A stretch of DNA of 40,824 nt from a virus (lineage: Duplodnaviria > Heunggongvirae > Uroviricota > Caudoviricetes), in the IMG/VR virus record IMGVR_UViG_2563366969_000004, positions 1 to 40,824 of that record. One strand, written 5' to 3'. A program made the position numbers and the translations under genes. Position 1 is the first letter of the stretch; every line of letters begins with the position of its first letter. A model generated the notes under the pieces. It was not told where the DNA came from, searched no databases, and was given only the letters and a program-made list of their open reading frames with translations. This document shows, in pieces, positions 1,268-17,498 of this stretch.

Positions 1268-1765
1268 TCAGTGCCACGATTTTTGCTTCTTCAGTGAATC
1301 GTATTGCTGTTCGCAGGATTCTCCTGCAATCCGATACTTTTCAGCCTCAGCTGCTGTTGCGTTGTAAACTCGATTGCTTTCTTCAAGCATGTCGGCGAGC
1401 ACACCGATGACCTTGCTGGCTGGCGTGCCAGTGGGGAAAGATCCGGTATAGTGTTCGGCGAGTCGCTTGGTTTTGTCAAGCTCGGCGCGCAGGCTGTCAG
1501 CAGCGGCATTAGCATGCTCAGCATCAACACGCGCCACATCGATACGGGATTGTGCTTCACGTTCAATTTGTGTTTTCTCCTGATCACGTTGTGACCTGGC
1601 CTTATCATCAGCCTGTTTCTGATCTTCCTGTGCCTGCGCATACCCGGCATCGTACTGGCGGCTGCCGTGTATATTCCAGGCAACCACTCCGACGATGAAC
1701 AGAGCAGCAAGCATCAACACGATAAGCAGCTGTTTCCAATATGCTTTTACGAATGTCAGGATCAT
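1268..1765 (-). CDS. Rz-like i-spanin (lysis)
   Basis: N-terminal TM helix then charged coiled-coil periplasmic domain; immediately downstream of endolysin with 4-nt overlap. Confidence 0.7.
1291..1539 (-). CDS. Rz1-like o-spanin candidate embedded in alternate frame of Rz
   Basis: ATG at 1537..1539 (complement); signal peptide with lipobox LTAC followed by proline-rich mature region; wholly inside Rz gene in a different frame; start uncertain (other in-frame ATGs at 1522, 1513, 1507). Confidence 0.4.
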   Translation of the reverse strand: MWRVLMLSMLMPLLTACAPSLTKPSDSPNTIPDLSPLARQPARSSVCSPTCLKKAIEFTTQQQLRLKSIGLQENPANSNTIH

Positions 1766-2391
1766 ACCGCCAGCACCTTACTGGCATTGATGTATCGCGC
1801 GCGCCGGTCGTCGATGCCGTTCCGGCCACCATTGATAATCAGAGTTACACGTGCAATATCGCCGGTATACTTCATGCATCCTTTGCTGGCAAAGAACCAC
1901 GCCGCGCTACGAGCCGCATATTCGTCCTGCGCCAGCAGTTCAGGGCTCTCCAGCAGGTCAACCTTCAGACCGTTTCCGCAATCACGATAGTTATTCAAAC
2001 CGGTAATCTGGATAAGTCCGCGCCCTCGGTAATTCCAGCCATCACCAGGGGCATTGTTCCCCATGCGTTTGCTGTATACCAGATTTGCGATCGCGCGCTG
2101 GCGCTCAAGTGGCAATGGTGGTTCACCAGCACGGCGCCCCAGTGCATTAGCCTGCCCCTGAGTGAGACGCCCAGCCCGAACGAAGTTAGCCAGTCCGCTG
2201 ACACTGTAGTTGAAATTCTCTTGCAACCTGGTGAAGCCCCCAGACTCATGCCCGACTTGAGCAATAAACATTGCCTGATCTTCTGCTTTGCTGATACCAA
2301 ACTCTTTCATCGCAGAAGTTATATGCGAGAACCAGCGTGCGGCCAGTGCCTCGCTGATACCAGCAGCTCGCTGGAATTGTTTAATCTCCAT
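1762..2391 (-). CDS. Endolysin, glycoside hydrolase family 19 (chitinase-like lysozyme)
   Basis: Protein from [11 protein letters not shown]... with [12 protein letters not shown] and [12 protein letters not shown] motifs characteristic of GH19 phage endolysins; SD GAGGT 7 nt upstream of ATG at 2389..2391; the six-frame ORF extends further upstream without RBS. Confidence 0.8.
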
Positions 2392-2689
2392 GTTTAGACC
2401 TCGATACTTTAAAAATTTGAACGACGTTACCGCGCGTTTTAATAACCGCAGCCAGCATGACAGCGTTGATAATGACCTCAGATAAATCCACAGCCATTGG
2501 CGTACGTAACCAGATTGCATAGGCGACTCGAACAGGAATACTGGCCGCAGCAACAATCAGGAAATAAGCAAGCCATCCTCCCCACCTTCGATGTTGAGAG
2601 CCGTTACGCCGGAATGTGACAACGCGAATTGCTATGCCAGTGCAAATAACTGCATTGGTGATAAGCAAAAAAAACTCATGCGTTACCAT
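2381..2689 (-). CDS. Small membrane protein in lysis cassette (holin or antiholin candidate)
   Basis: About 3 predicted hydrophobic helices, 102 aa, overlaps holin end and endolysin start. Confidence 0.5.
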
Positions 2690-3080
2690 CGTCTTTTCTC
2701 CCCGGAATTAACTCGCGTGGATTATCGGAACGGTGATAGAGCCATATACCAATACGCACAGCGACAATTGCTGACACGAATGCGCCTGCAGAGAAAACAA
2801 TCCCTTTTTCAAAAGAGTCCTGCGTGATGGTAGGGATCAGGCTGGCTATGCCGATAAGAATTGATGCTGCTGGTTTGTAAAAGAGAAGGCCGCAAAGAAA
2901 GCTGAGCATCGACAGGAGCACCCGGCGACGGATGGGGTACTCTACTGCAGAGGTAACAAAAATTACCGCCCCAGCCAAAGCCCCTAAAGCAACCTCCGGA
3001 GGGACACCTGCAATAACCGCAGCAAGAGAACCAAAACTAAGCAACTGATTTAATTGCTCACTTGTTACTTGAGCAGACAT
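2676..3080 (-). CDS. Holin candidate
   Basis: 134 aa, multiple hydrophobic helices, charged C-terminus; SD CAGGAG upstream; first gene of lysis cassette. Confidence 0.55.
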   Translation of the reverse strand: MSAQVTSEQLNQLLSFGSLAAVIAGVPPEVALGALAGAVIFVTSAVEYPIRRRVLLSMLSFLCGLLFYKPAASILIGIASLIPTITQDSFEKGIVFSAGAFVSAIVAVRIGIWLYHRSDNPRELIPGRKDDGNA

Positions 3081-3361: not shown

Positions 3362-3388
3362 CCCGCAAAATATTGCGGGCTTTTTTTT
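3362..3388 (+). terminator. Rho-independent terminator oriented for plus strand
   Basis: CCCGCAA-aata-TTGCGGG followed by T8; overlaps stop of tailspike gene; no annotated plus-strand gene upstream. Confidence 0.45.
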
Positions 3389-6300
3389 AACGTTCTTCCA
3401 GAGACTGAATCCGCTCTTTTATCTTATCCATTTCTCTGCGCTGCCATGCTGCCTCGATATAGAATAAGAGATCAGGTCTGACCCCCCATCTAGATCCTGC
3501 TGGCGTTATTTCAACGCGCTCAATGATGTCTTCCATTACCATCACTGGATTATCATCCTCATCAACAATGATGCTCCCGTCATTATCAGTCAGCGGCATT
3601 TCCCTTTGGCCAGTAATGACGTCATCATATACTGCGGGATAATCGTCATAGCAAAGAAAGGCATAGCGGCATGTTGTGCTTTCTTCTTCCATGAGTCCGT
3701 GAGAAATAAGAACATCACGAAGTTGCTGCGCGATTACACCATGATGTATCCTCGCCCCTTCTTCCCCCTTTATAGCGACAGCGTTCAGCCATTTATAAGC
3801 GATATACCTGACGTCACCCCAGGCATCCAGCAATGCTTCGTCAGGAGAGACCGGCTCTGTCTTTAATGTTCCGTCACTGGTAACCACAGGATTGGAGCCA
3901 AGATAAACTGTCGAGAACCTGTTTCCCGGACCACCAAGAGCATTTACATTATCAAGATAAGGTTTAACATCTCCGTTCTCAAAAAGATGTTCGAGTGCGT
4001 TATATACCGCGCGACGTGGAGTACTGCTTCCGGAACCATGCAACGTTATCATTGCACCATCTGCTGAAGACGTTGTTTCACCGCCGCTAACGATTAATCT
4101 CTGAGCGGTAACATCATCAGACGGTACTTTCTTCGCAATAATGGCGTAATTACCCTCAAGTTTGACTTCCGCGCGAACTTGTCCTGATGTACCTGCATGG
4201 ACAGTCAGTGACTGGACGGCAACATCATCTGTGAAATCAACGGGTACAGGAACCGTCCTCACGCCTGACGTCGACATAAAAGTAGGAAGCGTTCTGTTAG
4301 GAGTGGCTCCGTAGACAAAATCCCTTGAAACAAATTCTTCCTGTTTAATTTTCACCCTGAAACAATACAAATCAGCCGGGTGACCATCGTGAACATAAGG
4401 ATATTTTCTGTTGTTATCCCCTATGCTCCATGGGTTTAGAAAGTCTTCCCCACCGAAAATGTAGTACAGCCAGTTGTCTTTGATACAAACTGAACCAACA
4501 CCAACCGCAGAGTTAACTATTCCGCCCTGATAAATCTGATCAGTAACATTAACCCACTCTACATTATCCAGACTCCACTCATTGACGTTAACTCTGGTCA
4601 TAAATGTTCTTGGATAGTTTCCTGCATAACGGTTATCAGGTTCTCCTCCTTCCCACTCACCAAATGCGCGCTCACTGCCAAAAATAATCAGCTCATCGCC
4701 AACTTTGGCAAAAGGAAGGTTTGAGTGATGAACATTATTTGGGAAGCGAAGAGAATTCCATGATGTACCTAAATCAGAGCTTCTGTGCAATGAACTACCG
4801 GGTTGAGTACTTAATGTCCCCCTGGTCGTCAGATACAGAATGCCATCATAATATTTTACACATGGCTCAGATGCATTCGCCTCATATTCTGCAGGTATGC
4901 GTCTGCGAACAAAGCTACCAGGAGAACCGAAAGCATCAGAGAAATAGAGTATCCCAAGCTCGCGTGGACCAATATCACCATTATGGTAGCCAACAGCAAA
5001 ACTGTTATCGCTAATCGTCGCAAAACTGTGAATCTCAGTAACAGGAGTGCTTCCGTCAACAAAAGAAGGAATAGTTCCAAGACTGGTTTTTCTCCATGGT
5101 GACGAGTGAAATGATGTACCAAAACTCCAGTATCTACCCTCGTTATTCTGATCCACATCCTGGGTATTTTGCGTCGTAACTGTAAAAGTATTTTTATCAA
5201 TAACAGTAGTCACCGTCATATTCCCGGTAACACCTGTAACACCAGAGTTTGAGAAGTTGACAAAATCACCAGCAAATAATCCGTGATCAGTAATGCGAAT
5301 ATAAGCGACTTGCTGATTTGCTGCTTTCGTTATACCACCATAAACGCGAAGGCTGCGACTCATTGGGCGATCCCACAACTCTGCAACCTGCAGTTTATTT
5401 CCGCTCACGGTCCGCGTCTCAATTACAGCAAAAAGGCGATTTCTGACAACCCCCATACTCATGCAGTGATAGTTAACTGTGGGATAGTTTTCATGTAAAT
5501 CTGTAAGCCATTCCGGCGTTGTCCAGGTCTTCCCGTCATCTCCTGAGCGAACCCATGCAACATGGAGGTTATTTACACCATGGCGGTCTCCAGCCATAAA
5601 AGGCGCATAGATGACATTGTCATATACAAACGTTTTATCCTGCGTCCAGGCGTTGTACCACGGTGTATCTGTAATTTTAAATAACTCTCCCTGGATAAAA
5701 TCTTCAGAAGCATAAAAAAGAGGCTGGCCCGGTATTCTCTCAAATAAAAAACGAGCATTTTTAAATCGACTGACATCCGGAAGAGTTGATACTTTAAAAG
5801 TAAGCCCTAATCCGTCAATTTTATAACCTGGAGATGAGGCTTCAAGGCACGCGCTTATTGCAGTGGAATCGTCATTTATACCATCACCAACAGCTCCAAA
5901 ATCTTTGGGGCTAATAGCATCACGCATTTTATCCTGGAACGTTCGGTACACAGCCCCAGAACCATACTGAATAAACCAACCAAAACCACCAACAACCCCG
6001 GCGATTGCAGCATCGACATAATTACGCATTGAGCGATTATTTACAGCGTCCTGCTCAAATGATGGATCTGCAAGGTTAGAAATTTTGTTTTGCTTTGCAT
6101 CGTAATATTTTGCAAGCAAAGATGGTTTCATCAATGCACGTCTGAACCACCCAAAACATTGCTGGATCAGCATCGTCAGGTAGTCAAAGGCATCTTCATG
6201 CACTTCGGGGAAAAATTTTCCCTGATTGCGAAGGTCTGTCTCCTGCACTACATCAAGCACACGATCTATCGTAATTCGCCATCCAGTAGCAAGCGGAGAC

Positions 6301-6506
6301 GGAAGAACCACAGAACCGCCACTATAAGTGCCCGCCCCAGTTACCGTATAACCGGTATCCAGAACCAATTCTGTTACGTTTCCGTTCAGGTCAGACACCT
6401 GAACAACCAGGTCTGATTTTCTGAAAATTCGAAAAGTATACGGAAACGATGTCGTAACGCCGTTACCGGTGTATTCGTTGTGGTCAACTTCGGTTGAGAC
6501 CGTCAT
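3387..6506 (-). CDS. Tailspike / polysaccharide depolymerase with C-terminal intramolecular chaperone (peptidase S74-like) domain
   Basis: 1039 aa; N-terminal virion-attachment-like segment; motif DFGAVGDGINDDSTAI; two Asp-box motifs (SGDDGKTW, SSDLGTSW) as in sialidase-type propellers; C-terminal SDGTLK motif and conserved tail resembling the auto-cleaving chaperone of endosialidases; SD GGAG upstream. Confidence 0.8.
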   Translation of the reverse strand: MTVSTEVDHNEYTGNGVTTSFPYTFRIFRKSDLVVQVSDLNGNVTELVLDTGYTVTGAGTYSGGSVVLPSPLATGWRITIDRVLDVVQETDLRNQGKFFPEVHEDAFDYLTMLIQQCFGWFRRALMKPSLLAKYYDAKQNKISNLADPSFEQDAVNNRSMRNYVDAAIAGVVGGFGWFIQYGSGAVYRTFQDKMRDAISPKDFGAVGDGINDDSTAISACLEASSPGYKIDGLGLTFKVSTLPDVSRFKNARFLFERIPGQPLFYASEDFIQGELFKITDTPWYNAWTQDKTFVYDNVIYAPFMAGDRHGVNNLHVAWVRSGDDGKTWTTPEWLTDLHENYPTVNYHCMSMGVVRNRLFAVIETRTVSGNKLQVAELWDRPMSRSLRVYGGITKAANQQVAYIRITDHGLFAGDFVNFSNSGVTGVTGNMTVTTVIDKNTFTVTTQNTQDVDQNNEGRYWSFGTSFHSSPWRKTSLGTIPSFVDGSTPVTEIHSFATISDNSFAVGYHNGDIGPRELGILYFSDAFGSPGSFVRRRIPAEYEANASEPCVKYYDGILYLTTRGTLSTQPGSSLHRSSDLGTSWNSLRFPNNVHHSNLPFAKVGDELIIFGSERAFGEWEGGEPDNRYAGNYPRTFMTRVNVNEWSLDNVEWVNVTDQIYQGGIVNSAVGVGSVCIKDNWLYYIFGGEDFLNPWSIGDNNRKYPYVHDGHPADLYCFRVKIKQEEFVSRDFVYGATPNRTLPTFMSTSGVRTVPVPVDFTDDVAVQSLTVHAGTSGQVRAEVKLEGNYAIIAKKVPSDDVTAQRLIVSGGETTSSADGAMITLHGSGSSTPRRAVYNALEHLFENGDVKPYLDNVNALGGPGNRFSTVYLGSNPVVTSDGTLKTEPVSPDEALLDAWGDVRYIAYKWLNAVAIKGEEGARIHHGVIAQQLRDVLISHGLMEEESTTCRYAFLCYDDYPAVYDDVITGQREMPLTDNDGSIIVDEDDNPVMVMEDIIERVEITPAGSRWGVRPDLLFYIEAAWQRREMDKIKERIQSLEER

Positions 6507-6965: not shown

Positions 6966-6983
6966 AGGCCGCAAGAGCGGCCT
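6966..6983. terminator. Hairpin between convergent genes (terminator-like)
   Basis: AGGCCGC-aaga-GCGGCCT; same stem sequence recurs at 9642..9659. Confidence 0.4.
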
Positions 6984-7710
6984 ATCGTTTCGCTTTGTGC
7001 TCGTCCCAGCACGTTTTGCACCATGCCATTAAGCCGTCCGCATTTTGATTATTAGGGTAAAAGCTGGTCCGTTTTCTGCGGACATTACAAATTGGGCACC
7101 ACTTCATATGGCGTGTATTCTTTGGGCCATCGAGACACCTTGCACACCACTTAGTCAATCCATCTGGATTTTTTGACGATTTCCGGAATTTGTCATATGG
7201 AAGGTTTATTCTGCATCGCAAACACTGCTTGCGGCCACTTGAAACTCTGTTAGCTGATTCTTCTTTTGGCGGCGATACAGAAGGTATTCTTGCTGGCTCT
7301 GATACTGCCTGAGGTGCTTTTTTAGATGACTGAGACGATATGTCATCACCAGGGAATCTTCCATGATATGCCGGACGCGTTGACACTCCAGGTGGAAGCT
7401 CAGCTGTAAACGGCTTTGGCTGAATCAGTTGCCTCTCTTTTGCTAACTCCTGCTGTTTATAATATGTCTGGATTACCGCACTATCATAAGCAGGAGGTAC
7501 GGAAATATCAGGCGCGTTACCTCCAGTTTTTTGAAAATGAGTAGATGTGTGTTCTATCACCTGTGTACGACTAATCGTTACCTCCCCATCTTCGGTCTTT
7601 ATCGTTTTGTTCTGATTAACGACCGTACGATCAGAGATCTTAGTCTTGTTCTGGTTGATAACGTAAATAATCACCGCAACCACACCAACAACTATCCAGA
7701 AAACTTCCAT
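6982..7710 (-). CDS. Membrane-anchored protein with tandem C4 zinc-ribbon repeats, unknown function
   Basis: N-terminal TM helix followed by basic residues; C-terminal two repeats of C-x2-C-x21/22-(DGL..W)C-x2-C; SD GAGGAAAA upstream of ATG. Confidence 0.6.
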   Translation of the reverse strand: MEVFWIVVGVVAVIIYVINQNKTKISDRTVVNQNKTIKTEDGEVTISRTQVIEHTSTHFQKTGGNAPDISVPPAYDSAVIQTYYKQQELAKERQLIQPKPFTAELPPGVSTRPAYHGRFPGDDISSQSSKKAPQAVSEPARIPSVSPPKEESANRVSSGRKQCLRCRINLPYDKFRKSSKNPDGLTKWCARCLDGPKNTRHMKWCPICNVRRKRTSFYPNNQNADGLMAWCKTCWDEHKAKR

Positions 7711-9033: not shown

Positions 9034-9573
9034 GTGTTAAGTGAAGAAATGCAATTTGCCATGGCTGTGGCTCAAATCGTAAGTGCAGTCGCGGTTTCGC
9101 TTGGCTTGTTCATAGCTATCGCTACTATTATTTATAATGTAAATACAGCGAGAAAAGTACACACTTCAGTATTCCTTGGTGAAAGCAGGTTTGATGTAGA
9201 TTATAAGAAAGGCCTATCTACTATGCGCCGCATTCACGAGTCGAACAAATCATTCCGCTCTTATATGTATCCAAGCAATGGGCAGGCTGATCTTACGGAT
9301 GAAGAAAAGATAGAGAAGAGAGAAATAATTTACTGTCTAGGTTTCTACGAACGCATGGCTGTGAGCGTGAAGCGGAAAACTTATGATGAGACCATGATTA
9401 AGGAAGTATTTTACAGCTCCGTTGTAAATAACTATCAGATTGCGCTACCTCTTATACAAGCTATTAGAGAAAAAGAAAACATAAACACATATTTTAAAGA
9501 ATATGAATGGTTGGCCACACGATGGAAGGATTGTCCATTGAAGGATAAATCCCCGTGGTACAAGTTTTGGTAA
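9034..9573 (+). CDS. Membrane-anchored hypothetical protein (179 aa); candidate superinfection-exclusion or abortive-infection factor
   Basis: N-terminal TM helix then about 140-aa soluble domain; AT-rich by eye relative to flanking phage genes; own terminator; opposite strand to late operon; start GTG 9034 (SD GGAGACAG) or ATG 9049. Confidence 0.6.
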   Translation: MLSEEMQFAMAVAQIVSAVAVSLGLFIAIATIIYNVNTARKVHTSVFLGESRFDVDYKKGLSTMRRIHESNKSFRSYMYPSNGQADLTDEEKIEKREIIYCLGFYERMAVSVKRKTYDETMIKEVFYSSVVNNYQIALPLIQAIREKENINTYFKEYEWLATRWKDCPLKDKSPWYKFW

Positions 9574-9596
9574 GCCCGCGCTGCGGGCTTTTTTGT
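9574..9596 (+). terminator. Rho-independent terminator
   Basis: GCCCGC-gct-GCGGGC followed by T6. Confidence 0.7.
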
Positions 9597-9633
9597 GTCT
9601 GCGGATTCCCGCCCGGGTGGCGGTGGCATTCGT

Positions 9634-9659
9634 TAAAAACAAGGCCGCGAAAGCGGCCT
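9634..9659 (-). terminator. Rho-independent terminator for minus-strand small membrane gene
   Basis: AGGCCGC-gaaa-GCGGCCT with T-run on minus strand. Confidence 0.55.
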
Positions 9660-9671
9660 GTGACATGTCAC
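9660..9671. repeat. 12-bp perfect palindrome GTGACATGTCAC, copy 1
   Basis: Exact match; abuts terminator hairpin; overlaps stop codon of 9668..9964 gene. Confidence 0.7.
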
Positions 9672-9964
9672 GTCCCTTTTCTGAATGATAGCCATTCGAA
9701 AAATGATGACATTCCACCGCAGACAATAGCAAAGATGATCCCACCAAAGAAGAGAAGGCCAGCCTGCCACCACTCCCACCGCCATACATCCACAGCGCCA
9801 ACCATACCAACAATCGCTCCAACAAATGGAATATAGCTCACGATGAAAGCAATGGGGGCTGCAATTATCCAGTGCAATCCCCACCATGATTCAAGCCCAG
9901 CCATAATTGCTGCCAACTGAAAAAGACCAACGACGATATAAACAATGAATCCTATAGCTTGCAT
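9668..9964 (-). CDS. Small multi-TM membrane protein (98 aa), unknown function
   Basis: ATG 9962..9964 (complement) with SD AGGTGA; about 3-4 hydrophobic helices, Trp-rich loop. Confidence 0.5.
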   Translation of the reverse strand: MQAIGFIVYIVVGLFQLAAIMAGLESWWGLHWIIAAPIAFIVSYIPFVGAIVGMVGAVDVWRWEWWQAGLLFFGGIIFAIVCGGMSSFFEWLSFRKGT

Positions 9965-10160
9965 GTAGTCACCTAATTTACCCAGTAAAAATAAGAGGCC
10001 TCCCCTCAATAAGGCTTGCAACAAGAACTACTCCCTGCACAACAAAGATGAACCAGCAAATAGCTTGAGTCTGAGGGTTAAGAAAATATTTGTAGCGGTC
10101 AATAAATAACAATCCACCAGAAATTATCACACTCAAAATAATTAAAAACACAACACTTCC

Positions 10161-12635
10161 TTATTGCGGAGTGACATCCTGTGGTCGCCACCAGTATGTC
10201 TGGTTAAACTCTTTCTTCGAACGTTGCTCCATTTTACGCAAATAGCCTGGTGAAAAATACTCCTGCATCTGGTTAAAGATCATGTGATCGAGAGCCGCCT
10301 TCAAGTACCAGAGATTCGCACCAGGCATCAAACCTTTCCCCAGCTTCACCAGATCACCACCAGTCTGCTCACTCTTCCCTTCCACAGCATTTAACGGTAT
10401 GCCCTGAGCAATCTTCACTACGTCATCAACCAGACCAGCTACCGGGCCAAGCATCGACGCCAGCGCGCCGCTTCCGTACCTAGTGTGATCTGACAATAAA
10501 AAGTCACCGTAAAGGCCAAGACCACCACCTTTCAGTAGAGCACCAAGCCAGAATTTTGCGGCATCTTCTCCTGTCATCTCTCGAGGATTACGACCAGACG
10601 CAAGGTCGTTAAGTTGCTGCGACAAAGCGCCAAGAATGGTCGTACTGGCAATAAACGTCGCAATATATGCCGCACGCCCACCAGCAGACGGCATACCCAT
10701 AGCGCGTGACCAGTGACGCATAACAACCGAGATAGGGAACGATTTAAACAGGAAAACACTTCTCGTTAATTCACCTTTCCATGTTCCACGCTGAATACCA
10801 GAACCGGTTATCAGTTGCTCACGTGCTCCCGGTGTAATAACAGCCATATCAACTTCTTCAGTTACGGCACCGAGCAGTTTACGCATTGCCTCAAATTTCA
10901 CGCGTTCAGGCTCACCAAGATGTTTAACTGCTGAATCAGGGATACGCATAATGCTTTCCGGTGTCAGCATCGTATTATTACCGTTCCCCCAGTCCTCCTG
11001 TTTCGCCAGCTTCCATACGCTCCAGTCTGTGTCAGTAATCCCTTTGCTTTTCAGGATACGAAAATCAGAGTCATCGAGGCTACGAAGGTCTGGTGTCCGT
11101 GACACTACTTCTCCCAGGCTTCCCATCATGGTTACGCCATAGGCGCGCTTGTGCGCATCTGACCATGCTGTAAGCCCACTGGCACGCATTACCGCCGTTG
11201 CCGCCCAACGAGACACTGACGGCCCCATATTATCCATCGCCCAGCGGTTAACGCTGCCAAGTAGAGATTCCATCGCCAGACCAGCGCGGCGCGCCCGCGC
11301 AAGTTCTGTACGGTTCGTTGGGTCCATAGCTTCAAGCTGGTTGCGGAATAACTGGTTCATTGGAAGGTTGGTAACCTTCGCAGACAGATACATGGTTCCA
11401 AGATCAGAGAACGATGACAGCAACGCGGATCCGAGTCTGCTGGCAACCAGCCAGTTGCGGATATTGTCAGACCATCGCGCGATGTGCGGATTCGCTACAG
11501 GCTGTGTCTTTCCGGAAATAAAGTTGTACAGATTCTCTGTGTTGTTCGCCAGCCGCTCGACTTTACCGGTTTTACTCGGGTTAGCTGTTGCCGTTTCTGC
11601 CTTCACCTGATCAAGAAGAGAGCGGAAAACATGATCGGGGTTTGGGCCATATGTTTCCACCAGTGCAATATCTTTACTGATACCTTCCAGGTGACCGACC
11701 ATGATTTCCCATAGAGAGCGATCGCCATAAAGTTGCTGATATTGCAGATAGGAATCTGCATCTTTGAAATGTATCTGTCGTGATGCATTACCCCGGTTAG
11801 CACGTGCGCCGGAAATTCGCATTCCGGTATCAGTAAGCTTATTCAGCCCACCAGTAGCGATCGTGTTATAAGCCTCTCCAAGAAATGCAGACAACTCGGC
11901 ATCGTTCATCAGTTGTCCATCGACTCGGGTATAATATTTGCGATCCAGCTTACCTATAACATCGCTAACCCACTTATCCTTTGATACCGCCCCAACCTTT
12001 TCCATAGAATGATGTTGAGGGAGCCCCCAGTTTTCGAGATAGCCAATGTCCCCACCAGCATCATTAAACCGGCGGCGCAGTAGCTCTGTCACTTCTCTCC
12101 ACGCCTTAGCACCTTTTCTTGCTTTAGCATTGCCAGTATTTTGCCCTCGCATTTCATATACCAGGTCACGCACGCCAGCTTCATCTTCAAACAGGCCAAA
12201 AAAGCGAGGATCAACTGCTTCAAATGCCTCCTGCAATTGACTCAATGCATAATCACGAGTGGCTTTTGTTCTGGATTCAACAGAGAGGAAATTCGATTTA
12301 CCGTCTGCATTAAAAGCAATAGTACGGTTAAGAGCGCCAAGTTTCCCATCAGCCCCTTGATAGCTATTGATAAATTTATCCAATCTCTGACGTGCGGCTA
12401 TAGTGAGGGCCACACGACGTTTCTTTAATGCCGCTTCTCGCTGTAATTCTTCAGATGCCAATTGTGCTGCTCGATATAGCCGCTCTGATTCGGAAAGTTG
12501 TCGCCACGACATAGGGTCATCACGAGCAATGGAGCGCATATTTCGATAAATGCGGTCTTCAATGTTCTGTATTTCTCGCGCCGTTAACATGCGCTGCGCC
12601 GCCTGCTGAACCGCTTGTATACATTCCTGTCTCAT
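10161..12635 (-). CDS. Internal virion / DNA-ejection protein (large)
   Basis: 824 aa, last gene of structural operon, position and size as for podovirus core/ejection proteins. Confidence 0.6.
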   Translation of the reverse strand: MRQECIQAVQQAAQRMLTAREIQNIEDRIYRNMRSIARDDPMSWRQLSESERLYRAAQLASEELQREAALKKRRVALTIAARQRLDKFINSYQGADGKLGALNRTIAFNADGKSNFLSVESRTKATRDYALSQLQEAFEAVDPRFFGLFEDEAGVRDLVYEMRGQNTGNAKARKGAKAWREVTELLRRRFNDAGGDIGYLENWGLPQHHSMEKVGAVSKDKWVSDVIGKLDRKYYTRVDGQLMNDAELSAFLGEAYNTIATGGLNKLTDTGMRISGARANRGNASRQIHFKDADSYLQYQQLYGDRSLWEIMVGHLEGISKDIALVETYGPNPDHVFRSLLDQVKAETATANPSKTGKVERLANNTENLYNFISGKTQPVANPHIARWSDNIRNWLVASRLGSALLSSFSDLGTMYLSAKVTNLPMNQLFRNQLEAMDPTNRTELARARRAGLAMESLLGSVNRWAMDNMGPSVSRWAATAVMRASGLTAWSDAHKRAYGVTMMGSLGEVVSRTPDLRSLDDSDFRILKSKGITDTDWSVWKLAKQEDWGNGNNTMLTPESIMRIPDSAVKHLGEPERVKFEAMRKLLGAVTEEVDMAVITPGAREQLITGSGIQRGTWKGELTRSVFLFKSFPISVVMRHWSRAMGMPSAGGRAAYIATFIASTTILGALSQQLNDLASGRNPREMTGEDAAKFWLGALLKGGGLGLYGDFLLSDHTRYGSGALASMLGPVAGLVDDVVKIAQGIPLNAVEGKSEQTGGDLVKLGKGLMPGANLWYLKAALDHMIFNQMQEYFSPGYLRKMEQRSKKEFNQTYWWRPQDVTPQ

Positions 12636-12640
12636 TTAAT

Positions 12641-14443
12641 TTAACCTCTCAAGAAACACGCCACAGCGACATCAAACAGGCTGGAATCCTGTATTGCCTG
12701 CTCACTTTCCCTGTTCGCTTCATCCAGTGCTTCACGCGCACTGCGCGATTGTGGATTACCATCATCATCCAGCACGGTGATTATCATGTCAGGTGATTCA
12801 AGCAGCGAGTCTTCAGCTATGCGCAGATCAATATCTCCTGCCGGATCTGCCATCATTTTTTGTTCTGTCTGTTGCAATATCTTACCGGGCTCAAAAGGAG
12901 CTACTTCTTCTGGCGTCCTGACCTCTGCTGTTTTATAGAATGAAACAGCCTGAGCATTAAGTTCACTTTCTGCCTGCTGTCGTCGTGCCAGTTCTGCTCG
13001 AGCTTCAAAAAACTGACCTCCAGGCTCGTGCGGCGCCAACGCGTTACGAGAAAATTCCAGGCGTTCTTGTGCCTGCCGGATTCGTTGGTCAATATCGCGA
13101 AGTCTGGCCTGTTTATCTGATCGAGCACGAGATAAAGCCTTACCGCTACCGGTTGGCTCTTCTGCAAGAATTTGTGCGCGCTGTTCAGTGAGATTTTCAA
13201 TAATTCGTTGGCTATTAGCGATTTCAGACTGGTAAACCTTTCTATCGCCACGCGACAAAAGCTGCGCGGCCTGTTCTTCAAGCAACCGATTTTCTATAGC
13301 GCGCGCCGTTACTCCATCATCTACAGATGACAGAGCCTCATTAACTGCCTGAGACAGCAGACTCTTGCGCCCAGGAATTTCACTGAAAGATGCAGACTCA
13401 ACAATGCTGGCAACGTCTACAGGTCTCCCCTGGCTAACATCAGACATGGCTTTTCGCAGAGCCTGAATGTGCGAATTACGCGAAAGCACGTTGATCGGAA
13501 CGCCGGGAGCAATATCAATTTCAGCATGATGAGCGGCATTCGCCGCCAGTGCAGCATCAATATCAACTGGTGAAAAATTTGGTGCGCTTGTAGACTCGCC
13601 GCGAGAGTTAATAAATCTGCCGACACCACCAAACGCCACCCCAAGAACAGCATCAATAGCAATTGCCTGTCGATCCAACACATCATACTGGTTAGCCATT
13701 TCGCTATAGCCACCATCACGAAGCGTTTTTGCAGTAAGCCCACGCTGTGCCATACCGAACGCAATATTTGTACCTGCGGCATAGGCAATATCTGGCGTTG
13801 CACGTATTGCTGTTGCTGCGGCGCGTCGCACTGAACTTTCACCCGTCCGCGCAAGCTGAGCCGCCACACCTTCCGCCAGCGCACCACCAGCACGTAACCC
13901 GAGGCTCATAGGGATCAGTGTTCCGGCACCAGCAGTAATACCCTGCACTAATCCCGCTTCCTGCGCCGTCCTGAAATCAACACCCTGTGCTGTCAACCGT
14001 TCAAACTCAGAAAAACCCTGTAGAGAAGTTACCGCCGCAGCACCTCCGACCGGACCACCGAGCGTTGTACCGACAACAGCCTGCCCGCCCATATCGAACA
14101 ACCCATAAAGGACCTGCCCGGCGGTTCCGGTTGTCGCGGCATCAGGCGTCAGCCGCTTAACCTGCTGCTCTGCTAGTTTTCTCTGCTCAGCAATGTATGA
14201 AACTGAAGTGTCATTGAGCGAGGTGTTTTCGTTAACAAGCTGAGCAATCGGGGATACGATTTTATCCATCCCTGCCCATAGCAACTGATCTGGCTTTGCC
14301 ACCAGCCCGGAGTACAAACCAGACAATGCCGCTCCTACAGCATTGTCGAAAAAACCAACATCGCTGTTAAAGCCAACTGGATTTGATGCTGCTTCGTCAA
14401 GCTGCTGATTCTGGTTTACTGGATTAAGGCCAAAGTAACTCAT
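12641..14443 (-). CDS. Internal virion / ejection protein
   Basis: 600 aa, Ala/Gly-rich, translationally coupled to upstream gene. Confidence 0.55.
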   Translation of the reverse strand: MSYFGLNPVNQNQQLDEAASNPVGFNSDVGFFDNAVGAALSGLYSGLVAKPDQLLWAGMDKIVSPIAQLVNENTSLNDTSVSYIAEQRKLAEQQVKRLTPDAATTGTAGQVLYGLFDMGGQAVVGTTLGGPVGGAAAVTSLQGFSEFERLTAQGVDFRTAQEAGLVQGITAGAGTLIPMSLGLRAGGALAEGVAAQLARTGESSVRRAAATAIRATPDIAYAAGTNIAFGMAQRGLTAKTLRDGGYSEMANQYDVLDRQAIAIDAVLGVAFGGVGRFINSRGESTSAPNFSPVDIDAALAANAAHHAEIDIAPGVPINVLSRNSHIQALRKAMSDVSQGRPVDVASIVESASFSEIPGRKSLLSQAVNEALSSVDDGVTARAIENRLLEEQAAQLLSRGDRKVYQSEIANSQRIIENLTEQRAQILAEEPTGSGKALSRARSDKQARLRDIDQRIRQAQERLEFSRNALAPHEPGGQFFEARAELARRQQAESELNAQAVSFYKTAEVRTPEEVAPFEPGKILQQTEQKMMADPAGDIDLRIAEDSLLESPDMIITVLDDDGNPQSRSAREALDEANRESEQAIQDSSLFDVAVACFLRG

Positions 14444-16953
14444 TGCGGAATATCTCCGGAGAATCTCTGACGCTTCTGTGTCAGATCAAGAACAACGGGA
14501 GAACCATCATCTTTTAGCAGATAACCAGTACCAAGTTTCACCAGGTACTGACTATCGCCGTAACTTTGCAAACCATACTGACCAGGCGGTGTTTTTATCC
14601 CTGTGCCAACAACTTGTTCATTCCAAGCCTGATTAACCTGCTTATCGAATTGCTCTGCAGACATTCCCCACGGCAAAAGAACATTCCCCATTCCGTTATA
14701 GTCATGCACGCCACCTGTAGCTACGTTAACAGCCTGTTTCCAGATATCATTGTCAATTTCGCCTGATACCACGCCTTTTTTCGCCATCACACCAGCGTAA
14801 TAGTCCTTTGCGATCTCGTATGCCATTGATGCCCCCTGAGCATCACCAGCAAATGCATTCTTCACCATGTCAGAAAACTCAAGGCGAAGATCAGCATCTT
14901 TAGGCATCGGAATACCTTTCGCGTCATCAGTACCTTTACGAGCCGCCGCGCCAGCAAGAATTGTCTGCGCAGCGGTTTCTGGAGACACGGAAACATCCGG
15001 ATTAAACCAGTTTTTTTCTGCCAAAATACCACCTGGCTTATCCATCAGTATCCCGGCAACGGCAGCAGATGGAGCGTTGGCACTGATCTGCTGTAGTGCT
15101 GACATATACACCTGCCCACCACCAGTGCTCTGCCTGATGGTATCGAGATATGCTGCCTGTTGGGAAACGGGCGCATCACGAAAGAAAACACCGATCTGAT
15201 TGGCCTCGTCTTTGGAAAAGAACGTCAGTGGAGTGCCATATGACTTAGCAAGGTCACTGACCTGAGCAGCACGCAAGGCAACGCTCTGTCCAAAGTTATC
15301 CTTATTGCTCATGTCGATAGGCTTTGCCTGTCCGGCGGCAAGAGAGAACTGTACAGGATCAGCCTGTCGCTGCTTTATCACCTGACTTGCAGCCGACACA
15401 ACGTTGTCATAAAGAGCGGCTCGTGCCGCATAACCCTCCCCTGTCTCACCAGTATCCGGGCGTAATTGCTCAACATATGCTGTAATGCTGCTTGTCGGCA
15501 TGTTGCGGAAAGAGCCTATATACTGTCCGGCGATTTGCGTATTTCTGAACTCGGTATATCGCAGGTTTCCTTCTCTTACTCCATAAGCTGCAATAAAATC
15601 AGCCTCACCAGGTGGGTTAGGAAATTCAACGCCACGCATATACGCAGCTGTCGCATCGCGAACCTGGCTGTCAATCATCGTTTTATATTCAGCCTGCTGC
15701 TGCCGACGCAGTTGATCCGCCTGTCGCATAAAACTTGCCTGCGCCTCAGGAGATGCCGCATCGAATGCTGCATTACCGGTATAGCGTTTGGTGTTGGTTG
15801 GAATTGTTGATAAACCAAGTGCTGCACTGACACCAGCAGTTAACTGCTGATCACTGTATGGCTGGCTACCGTTCTCATGATGGATAATGGCTGCACAAAG
15901 CGCCTTCAGGGTATCAGGATTAGATGCATCGAGAGGCTCATCAGCAGAAACGCCAAGTTGTTCGCACACTGCTTTGATATACGACATAGTGTCATTTTTA
16001 TCAGTAGGCGGTGCCCAGCGATTAATTATCTCGCTGACGGTATCAATACCCTGCCTCTGATACGACATCAGGTTCCGCCCTAATGCACGAATCCCGTGTT
16101 CAGGTGTTTCGAATTTAGCAAATCGACCATCATCACCGGTCTGGCCTACCCACGGATTAGTTTTGCTGTATTCGAGATTTCCTGGGTTATTGTTGCGTAT
16201 GCCACGGGCACGCTCGGAAGAGTCACTATCTGCTACAGCACGGCGAGCTCCAGCAGCAGTATCACTTAACTCGCCATTACTTTGGATGAATGCGGTCGCA
16301 TTGTTTGCCGACCACTGGGACAATGCAGCATCAGCAACCTTCTCTTTAAACTCGATTTTCTTGGCCTGGATTTGCTCGTCACTCCAGCCATGTGCAATGC
16401 CGTAATCCTCAATTTGCTGGAAAGTTTGCTTATTAGCCAATACGTATGCGGCGTTGTCGCCATACAATGCTGCGGCATTTTTACCATTGTTCAGCAGCGT
16501 AGCCTGAAACTGGCCTTCTTCGTAGGCATTTATTTGCCCTATCTCGTGCCGCCCGGCCTGCGTAGTGAACTGAATGCGCTGCTGCTGCGCCTGCTGCATG
16601 AAAGCATTACGAGCCTGTTCATCCGGCAGCGACATAGCCAGTTGTTCGACCTGAGCATCAAACTGCTGCGTATACTCCTGACCTTTTCCAATAGCATTTT
16701 TCCCTTTCAGGTTAAGCAATCCTGTTTCAGGATTATTCAGCAGATCACTGCTTATCTGACTGAGGTTAAGAGATGCCTCCTGAGCCAGAGCGATATTGGC
16801 ACGCTGTTTTGCCTGACCAAAAACATCAATTGCCTCTGTCCCTGCCCGAACAAAAGCATCACCAATACCTGGCTGAGAAAACGTCTGCAAGCCTGCTGAC
16901 TGAACTCCACGGCTCTGAACCTGACGGCCGGATACTGTTGGTACGACTGGCAT
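14440..16953 (-). CDS. Internal virion protein, possibly with cell-wall-degrading segment
   Basis: ATG at 16951..16953 (complement) with SD GGAGG and TAATG coupling to upstream gene (the six-frame ORF start at 17028 overlaps the upstream gene by 75 nt); contains RNNNPGNL motif whose hydrolase assignment I cannot confirm. Confidence 0.55.
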   Translation of the reverse strand: MPVVPTVSGRQVQSRGVQSAGLQTFSQPGIGDAFVRAGTEAIDVFGQAKQRANIALAQEASLNLSQISSDLLNNPETGLLNLKGKNAIGKGQEYTQQFDAQVEQLAMSLPDEQARNAFMQQAQQQRIQFTTQAGRHEIGQINAYEEGQFQATLLNNGKNAAALYGDNAAYVLANKQTFQQIEDYGIAHGWSDEQIQAKKIEFKEKVADAALSQWSANNATAFIQSNGELSDTAAGARRAVADSDSSERARGIRNNNPGNLEYSKTNPWVGQTGDDGRFAKFETPEHGIRALGRNLMSYQRQGIDTVSEIINRWAPPTDKNDTMSYIKAVCEQLGVSADEPLDASNPDTLKALCAAIIHHENGSQPYSDQQLTAGVSAALGLSTIPTNTKRYTGNAAFDAASPEAQASFMRQADQLRRQQQAEYKTMIDSQVRDATAAYMRGVEFPNPPGEADFIAAYGVREGNLRYTEFRNTQIAGQYIGSFRNMPTSSITAYVEQLRPDTGETGEGYAARAALYDNVVSAASQVIKQRQADPVQFSLAAGQAKPIDMSNKDNFGQSVALRAAQVSDLAKSYGTPLTFFSKDEANQIGVFFRDAPVSQQAAYLDTIRQSTGGGQVYMSALQQISANAPSAAVAGILMDKPGGILAEKNWFNPDVSVSPETAAQTILAGAAARKGTDDAKGIPMPKDADLRLEFSDMVKNAFAGDAQGASMAYEIAKDYYAGVMAKKGVVSGEIDNDIWKQAVNVATGGVHDYNGMGNVLLPWGMSAEQFDKQVNQAWNEQVVGTGIKTPPGQYGLQSYGDSQYLVKLGTGYLLKDDGSPVVLDLTQKRQRFSGDIPQ

Positions 16954-17498
16954 TATAATCCTCCGGGTAATCTGGTTCCTGCTGCTGCCCCGATTGGCGC
17001 AGGAGTGCTTTGAGTAAACGGACTCCACGTCCCACCAAACATCTGGTACGCACCGTATGCCTTCAGAGGCGCAGTGAGCAATGTTGTTGCTGCTCCCACA
17101 TTCCCCTGTTTACGGGCTGAACTGGCTTCTGCTTTATAGTTGGCAGCCTGAACCTGATAACCGTAAGCCTCGCGTTGCGCGTTATTCACCGTCGTCAGAG
17201 AATCAAGAGCGCCAAACTGGGCAGTGTCGCCAAATATATCCAGCGCGTTACCTGTAGATAAATCAGCGCCGGTAGCCCCCATTGTCGCCGCCTGTGTACC
17301 AAGCCGCTGTCGGGTCTCTCTGCGCCGTTGCTCAGCTTCAGCGTTACCTCTGTTTATTGCATCATTTGCCTGAGCTGTGGCTATATCTGCGTTCGCTTCT
17401 GCAACCTTCGAGGCATACTTTCCCTGTTGGTACTGGGTGTATGCCTGAATGCCACTCATGGCGAGCATTGCGCCACCAGCAATAACCGGATCGCACAT
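16953..17498 (-). CDS. Virion protein (internal core protein candidate)
   Basis: 181 aa, Ala/Gln-rich, within structural operon. Confidence 0.5.
   Translation of the reverse strand: MCDPVIAGGAMLAMSGIQAYTQYQQGKYASKVAEANADIATAQANDAINRGNAEAEQRRRETRQRLGTQAATMGATGADLSTGNALDIFGDTAQFGALDSLTTVNNAQREAYGYQVQAANYKAEASSARKQGNVGAATTLLTAPLKAYGAYQMFGGTWSPFTQSTPAPIGAAAGTRLPGGL

Follow-up and report, generated by a model that had tools for sequence, protein, structure and literature searches.

T4 Imm and HK97 gp15 are small inner-membrane proteins with which phages block DNA entry, and the HK97 gp15 gene is a moron within the late structural operon. In phage P22, the sieA gene has the last ejection-protein gene on one side and the ant/tailspike region on the other, and encodes an inner-membrane protein with 3 predicted transmembrane (TM) helices, which blocks DNA delivery and is escaped through mutations in the ejection proteins gp16 and gp20 (PMC10883804). 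The gene is served by a promoter of its own and converges on gene 16, and SieA is found in 22 of 66 P22-like phages (PMC10883804). Here, we analysed a small membrane gene, p98, in IMG/VR record IMGVR_UViG_2563366969_000004; the window, meaning the whole stretch of 40,824 nucleotides that was analysed, is by its sequence an epsilon15/phiV10-like (Uetakevirus) prophage of E. coli K1. The p98 ORF comprises 98 codons on the minus strand (9668..9964), and we describe its product, on the basis of the ORF list, a homologue alignment, a structural model, and dN/dS, as an integral membrane protein of the family phrog_3075.

The P22 layout of ejection genes, small membrane genes, a Bro-N/Ant gene, and a tailspike gene is shared by the window. 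Like sieA, p98 is located between the last ejection gene (IVP-D, 10161-12635) and the tailspike gene (3387-6506), and like SieA its product is a small inner-membrane protein of a temperate podovirus with about 3 to 4 predicted helices. Both are accessory, p98 occurring in about 2/3 of the E. coli prophages of this type. They differ in size, 162 to 164 aa for SieA versus 98 aa for p98, and in arrangement, since sieA is encoded on the opposite strand with its own promoter whereas p98 appears to be the last cistron of the ejection operon. Homology to SieA (types A to C) was considered and rejected, as BLASTP gave E = 20, hhalign gave a probability of 0.25%, and the FxRYPxEAxxFNK motif is absent. 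Like T4 Imm and HK97 gp15, p98 is a small phage inner-membrane protein, and like that of HK97 gp15 its gene lies in a late operon; the PADLOC, Pfam, and PHROG scans of p98 returned no match to proteins of this type.

On the minus strand, the genes run from a T7_gp14-family protein (181 aa, 16953..17498) through a gp15-like protein of 862 aa and a gp16-like protein of 600 aa, these upstream internal-virion protein genes of the p98 operon together spanning 12641..17498, to an 824-aa IVP-D-like protein (10161..12635) that is homologous to epsilon15 gp17 and matches phrog_684, "virion structural protein"; a 57-aa gene, p98, and a terminator follow. Published work places epsilon15 gp17 in the IVP-D (T7 gp16) class of internal virion/ejection proteins (PMC4819975), and the IVP-D segment of the window is 100% identical to that of E. 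coli IAI39. The gaps are short, with 9 nt between the IVP-D stop and the start of the 57-aa gene and 13 nt between the latter and p98. A crude consensus scan found no sigma-70-like promoter on the minus strand from 9965 to 11500 (1.5 kb upstream of p98), and a candidate internal terminator at 10008..9992, inside the 57-aa gene, which would isolate p98, was rejected because its hairpin (−6.2 kcal/mol, z = 0.38) folds no better than shuffled sequence. Given the tight gaps, the lack of a detected sigma-70-like site, and the poor internal hairpin, p98 is best read as the final cistron of the ejection-protein operon rather than as a free-standing gene of an accessory island, the setting assumed in the initial annotation.

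Beyond the p98 terminator lie a convergent DUF4760 gene, a Bro-N/Ant antirepressor, a 242-aa gene, an endosialidase tailspike, and a lysis cassette. The tailspike (3387-6506, minus strand, 1039 aa) is a complete endosialidase with End_N_terminal, beta-propeller, beta-barrel, End_tail_spike, and Peptidase_S74 chaperone domains, and the prophage is therefore K1-capsule specific. The gene for the 242-aa protein (6982-7710, minus strand, phrog_6762) separates the antirepressor gene from the tailspike gene. Its product combines an N-terminal TM helix with a Cys-rich C-terminal region, for which Pfam gave Stc1 and PHROG gave endonuclease VII, HNH, and Lar-like families, and may be anchored in the membrane and of a zinc-ribbon or nuclease-like type.

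This arrangement bears on an alternative that we consider unlikely, namely that p98 is expressed late and assists the phage in its own cycle, in which case it would condition the inner membrane of the producer cell rather than defend the lysogen. Such a helper could shield the membrane from premature insertion of membrane-active internal virion proteins, or it could tune membrane energisation or the timing of lysis. The co-orientation and tight packing of p98 with the ejection genes, the single terminator, and the absence of a detected promoter of its own are consistent with this role. The base composition is also consistent with it, as the GC content of p98 (46.5%, GC3 44%) is like that of the structural operon (about 50%) and unlike the low GC of the 57-aa gene (36.8%) and the DUF4760 gene (39.1%).

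The gene itself is well delimited. Met1 is invariant across 27 aligned homologues (down to 48% identity, lengths about 94 to 103 aa), and because these proteins are all close to 98 aa, the ATG at 9964 is taken as the true start. A 118-aa version beginning at a TTG and reaching 10024 is merely the longest mechanical ORF and is contradicted by the alignment with its invariant Met1. A Shine-Dalgarno sequence, AGGTGA, can be read 4 nt before the ATG (9969..9974, minus strand). At the 3′ end, a Rho-independent terminator that closes the ejection-protein operon (9642..9659, minus strand) begins 9 nt past the stop codon and consists of GGCCGC-TTTC-GCGGCC followed by the T-run TTGTTTTT. Its hairpin folds with −14.3 kcal/mol (z = −3.1), a value that 0 of 200 shuffles equalled, and the segment is common to phiV10 although phiV10 lacks p98. 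The ORF, its Shine-Dalgarno sequence, and its own terminator, all proposed in the initial annotation, are thus borne out by sequence, alignment, and folding against shuffles, as is the convergent arrangement with a 179-aa gene that has a terminator of its own on the plus strand (9572..9590, from the hairpin scan).

Comparison with the copies in Klebsiella phage BUCT711 and K. pneumoniae ATCC 13883 gave pS values of 0.66 to 0.69 and pN values of 0.035 to 0.05, and hence a dN/dS of 0.02 to 0.03 with synonymous sites near saturation; between the 2 Klebsiella copies dN/dS was 0.05. The ORF is 98 aa long in 76 of 80 IMG/VR loci, the others being 96 aa (2 loci), 90 aa, and 108 aa, and in all 216 of the 216 p98-carrying E. 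coli genomes the match covers at least 80% of the gene. These results demonstrate that p98 is a genuine protein under strong purifying selection (dN/dS 0.02 to 0.05).

The p98 protein contains 8 Trp and 13 Gly residues and has hydrophobic segments at residues 1-25, 28-61, and 66-90, with the motif WRWEWW at residues 61-66. An AlphaFold2 model built from the 27-sequence alignment (pLDDT 89.7, pTM 0.71) has helices at residues 2-28, 32-44, 46-60, and 65-97. The 3 to 4 hydrophobic helices with a Trp-rich WRWEWW loop that had been noticed at the outset therefore correspond to 3 hydrophobic stretches modelled as 4 helices, and both the hydrophobicity and the model support a genuine small multi-pass membrane protein. 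Among 76 diverse relatives, Pro46 and Gly49 are invariant, and Gln16, Ala19, Gly53, Ala57, Trp61, Trp63, and Phe72 are kept in at least 90%, giving the family signature Q16, P46, G49, G53, A57, W61-x-W63, LLFF. On average, a sequence has 0.64 Lys plus Arg residues at the N-terminus and 2.37 in the C-tail; throughout the family, the N-terminus and the C-tail have a net positive charge and the two loops a net acidic one, and positions 43-47 are uncharged. Some homologues are fused to soluble N-terminal domains without a signal peptide (MORN repeats, basic regions). From the model, the conservation, the charge pattern, and these soluble N-terminal fusions, we infer a topology in which both termini would be cytoplasmic (N-in/C-in). 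The membrane would be crossed by helices 1 and 4, helices 2 and 3 would fold into a buried, uncharged hairpin hinged around the invariant Pro46/Gly49, and the acidic, Trp-rich loops LESWWG and DVWRWEWW would be placed at the periplasmic face.

The size, the several TM helices, the Gly-rich sequence, and the short basic C-tail of p98 recall class I/II holins, which share with it a small size and Gly-rich helices, and there is a weak match to Pfam Phage_holin_5_2 (E = 0.027). That p98 is a holin, an antiholin, or a toxin-like pore former is nevertheless very improbable, and the initial suggestion of a holin-like toxin is not supported. The Phage_holin_5_2 score of 15.2 bits falls short of the gathering cut-off of 29.2 bits and the match is seen in just 1 of 76 family members; p98 has neither a dual-start motif nor a long charged C-terminal domain; and the gene is intact in hundreds of lysogens. 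It also lies outside the complete lysis cassette at 1268..3080, about 6.6 kb away in another operon, where family matches identify 2 holin-family genes (Phage_holin_8 and Phage_holin_3_7), a GH19 endolysin, and a DUF2514/Rz-like gene.

Between IVP-D and p98, the window contains the 57-aa gene, p57 (9978..10151, minus strand, GTG start), which encodes a protein with 2 TM helices. It is unannotated in phiv142-3 and BUCT711 yet conserved, the BUCT711 copy being 77% identical with a pN/pS of 0.26, and it was found in 64 of 80 IMG/VR loci. Epsilon15 gp18 and phiV10 p21 resemble p98 in being small hydrophobic proteins encoded directly after gp17/IVP-D and before the shared terminator; they are unlike p98 in having 46 to 64 aa and 2 TM helices, with no sequence resemblance. 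Their positional counterpart in the window is p57, which occupies the same place and is unrelated to either in sequence, and p98 is an additional gene. A small hairpin membrane protein 3′ of gp17 thus looks like a general feature of epsilon15-like phages. Other envelope proteins occupy this slot in relatives: in phage ZX5 it also holds a 126-aa lipoprotein with the lipobox LLVGC (locus L014, 133-513), and in Logan contig L108 a YecR-like lipoprotein of 108 aa (5661-5987) directly precedes the p98 homologue. This is a pattern typical of exclusion or conversion morons.

The convergent neighbour is a 179-aa DUF4760 protein (9034..9573, plus strand, phrog_2284) with an N-terminal TM anchor, encoded in a variable moron slot. 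The closest phages, phiv142-3 and HEMP4, cease to be homologous to the window at about position 9598, between the 2 terminators. A full-length DUF4760 gene is present in 41 E. coli genomes, 28 of which also have p98 adjacent; this fraction (28/41, 68%) equals the background carriage of p98 (216/318, 68%). Conversely, 188 of the 216 p98-carrying E. coli genomes lack DUF4760, and only 7 of 80 IMG/VR p98 loci have it; in relatives its place is taken by a 53-aa secreted protein, HicAB, a YafO toxin, or DUF2335. The pairing of p98 with the 179-aa gene that had been raised as a possibility is therefore not upheld, as co-occurrence stands at background and homology breaks between the terminators. Nor do the 2 genes form a module, since only 28 of 216 genomes and 7 of 80 viral contigs have both. 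The p98 and DUF4760 genes are independent. The refuting condition named at the outset, loss of p98 from most related prophages that keep the neighbouring gene, is therefore uninformative, as p98 is retained at its background frequency. The DUF4760 protein is a candidate defence or abortive-infection moron, and a literature search on DUF4760 returned nothing relevant. In most relatives with both genes (H25/H26, L030/L031), an extra segment of about 190 bp lies between them and encodes a 53-aa secreted "transmembrane anchored protein"; the window (9574-9667), like locus L053, lacks this insert, so that the DUF4760 and p98 terminators abut.

The position of p98 behind the ejection genes is conserved well beyond the window. 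In 79 of 80 IMG/VR loci, p98 is preceded on its own strand by a homologue of the IVP-D C-terminus, and the one exception has just 225 nt of sequence upstream of p98. In Klebsiella phage BUCT711 (p98 identity 92% to 94%), p98 is placed 3′ of an 824-aa IVP-D-like protein; in Cronobacter prophages (61%) it follows an 849-aa protein after a 1-nt gap; and in a different Salmonella podovirus prophage (52% to 55%) it lies 35 nt behind an 833-aa protein. In Yersinia kristensenii (58%), it stands behind an 1130-aa protein with a reversed secreted-protein gene in between, and Logan contig L108 (58%) has the order IVP-D, YecR-like lipoprotein, p98. Two further loci (L106 and L107) have a 64%-identical copy 360 nt behind an 872-aa SLT protein (L106 3023-6312), whose N-terminus is 47% identical to the gp15-like protein of the window. 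That element also carries primase, SSB, AlpA, integrase, and defence genes (Abi_2, SocA_Panacea, kinase/phosphatase), and may be a satellite or a degraded prophage retaining one ejection-protein gene. In loci L011 to L013, a 48%-identical copy adjoins an integrase and there are no ejection genes.

Sequence conservation of p98 is not matched by that of its neighbour. Diverged prophages have p98 proteins that are 55% to 60% identical where the adjacent IVP-D is only 26% to 29% identical, and several IMG/VR contigs have a p98 that is 94% to 100% identical beside an IVP-D of just about 27% identity. The near identity of p98 beside such distant IVP-D types indicates that its place is kept without co-evolution with the ejection proteins.

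This IVP-D occurs in 318 of 5,426 complete E. coli genomes and p98 in 216 (216/318, 68%). Only 7 Uetakevirus-type records among 50,697 deposited phage genomes contain p98. Epsilon15, phiV10, PAS61, and ZX5 lack p98 and have a 46- to 64-aa 2-TM protein at that place. The accessory status assumed for p98 from the start thus holds, as the gene is missing from epsilon15 and phiV10 and occurs in a part of the E. coli prophages of this type (about 216 of 318). Its absence from epsilon15, phiV10, PAS61, and ZX5 implies that it is not needed for assembly or infection, and these data show that p98 is dispensable for the epsilon15-like phage type. For a helper of the phage's own late cycle, the maintenance of the post-ejection-gene position across lineages is a point in favour. 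Its absence from those 4 phages and from about a third of the E. coli prophages of this type, the opposite-strand gene that splits p98 from IVP-D in Yersinia, the integrase-linked copies without ejection genes (L011 to L013), and the lack of co-variation with IVP-D all weigh against it.

Searches for relatives placed p98 in a wide but uncharacterised family. It is a full-length member of PHROG phrog_3075 (E = 1.6e-54, 183.7 bits, residues 1-98 on profile positions 1-98 of 98), a family without an assigned function and hence uninformative on mechanism. No Pfam or NCBIfam family matched above threshold, PADLOC-DB 2.0 gave no match at E ≤ 1 for p98, p57, the DUF4760 protein, or the 242-aa protein, a PDB sequence search with p98 gave no relative, and a fold search with the p98 model gave no informative match. 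Every p98 homologue is named "hypothetical protein" in its source. A profile search against 1.84 billion cluster representatives (50% clustering) recovered 747 relatives at E ≤ 1e-3, 320 of them at E ≤ 1e-10, most being stand-alone proteins of about 100 aa. Their genomes include Microvirga, a Thermoflexus metagenome-assembled genome (MAG), and Buttiauxella, and the superfamily extends to Alphaproteobacteria. Fusion or adjacent partners include DUF805, RDD, MORN, zinc-ribbon, and DUF6804 proteins; as clues to function, the fusion partners (DUF805, RDD, MORN, zinc ribbons) were all uninformative.

Outside phages, members of the family often form a 2-gene unit with another small membrane protein. 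At locus L110 (6001-6666), a member is paired with DUF805 across a 4-nt gap, DUF805 being also the fusion partner in 3 proteins, and in the alphaproteobacterial loci L022 (6308-6646) and L024 (6304-6594) the partner is DUF6804. At L025 (4146-6285) and L109 (6001-9417), members with 39% to 41% identity are co-oriented beside umuD/umuC, with SRAP also present at L109. The adjacency of these distant relatives to umuDC/SRAP could hint at SOS-linked expression, and as a link of the family at large it was dropped because it was not repeated in 3 further contexts (L110, L112, and L114).

The breadth of this superfamily raises a second alternative, to which we give a low probability, that p98 is a generic small membrane module and serves host fitness (lysogenic conversion) in a way that has nothing to do with phage entry, acting for instance as an oligomeric channel, a modulator of membrane potential or stress, or an anchoring subunit. 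The 747 representatives reaching Alphaproteobacteria and the Thermoflexus MAG, 320 of them with strong scores, speak for it, as do the DUF805, RDD, MORN, zinc-ribbon, and DUF6804 partners and the 2 contexts beside umuDC/SRAP, and the very strong constraint on p98 fits a conserved host-side activity. On the other hand, almost every close homologue examined (at least 50% identity) comes from a podovirus prophage, where the gene has a single fixed place, and no functional annotation anywhere in the family supports a specific activity.

Taking position and protein type together, by analogy with SieA, we propose tentatively, at a probability of about 0.3, that p98 acts from the inner membrane as an accessory factor hindering the entry of phage DNA in a SieA- or Imm-like manner. 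An exclusion or immunity role, one of those suggested for it initially, is the most plausible guess. Besides position and slot contents, the strong selection on p98 and its charge pattern are taken to be in line with this proposal. The protein would sit in the inner membrane of the lysogen or infected cell and would interfere with a conserved DNA-entry step of incoming phages. The step targeted might be the assembly or membrane insertion of the ejection-protein conduit, or else a host factor that the conduit uses. Its mode of action would thus be like that of P22 SieA or T4 Imm, while the protein is unrelated to either.

Several observations count against a role in DNA entry. The lack of homology to SieA, the absence of a PADLOC match, the late-operon position in an orientation opposite to that of sieA, and the failure to find a promoter are real counter-evidence; P22 sieA has its own promoter. 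In the phiv142-3 paper, orf12, which is identical to p98, is not among the prophage genes listed as serum-induced. Because p98 is far more conserved than the ejection proteins, a co-evolving partner among these proteins is also argued against, and the occurrence of the 747-representative superfamily in non-phage contexts and fusions suggests that the core activity is probably generic.

As it stands, p98 is an ordinary prophage-borne small membrane protein of an already catalogued but uncharacterised family, and the main practical gains are a corrected start codon for p98, the unannotated p57 gene, and the absence of a link to DUF4760. A bolder reading, which we regard as improbable, is that the p98 family represents an unrecognised class of inner-membrane factors, linked to the ejection-protein operon of temperate podoviruses, that gate a conserved host-side step in the translocation of podovirus DNA, either by excluding rivals or by aiding the phage's own entry or exit. 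Gating of a host-side step would explain why p98 keeps its place beside the ejection genes while these diverge beyond recognition. More broadly, since some bacterial copies adjoin umuDC/SRAP, the 747-cluster superfamily would be a damage- or induction-linked membrane modulator. Should p98 indeed act on DNA entry, it would provide a second handle, unrelated to SieA, on the inner-membrane channel of short-tailed phages, and its conservation across E. coli, Klebsiella, Cronobacter, Yersinia, and Salmonella would suggest that these hosts have the target in common. K1 and APEC strains are among the roughly 4% of complete E. coli genomes that contain the gene, and under the same premise its carriage could matter for the host range of therapeutic podoviruses.
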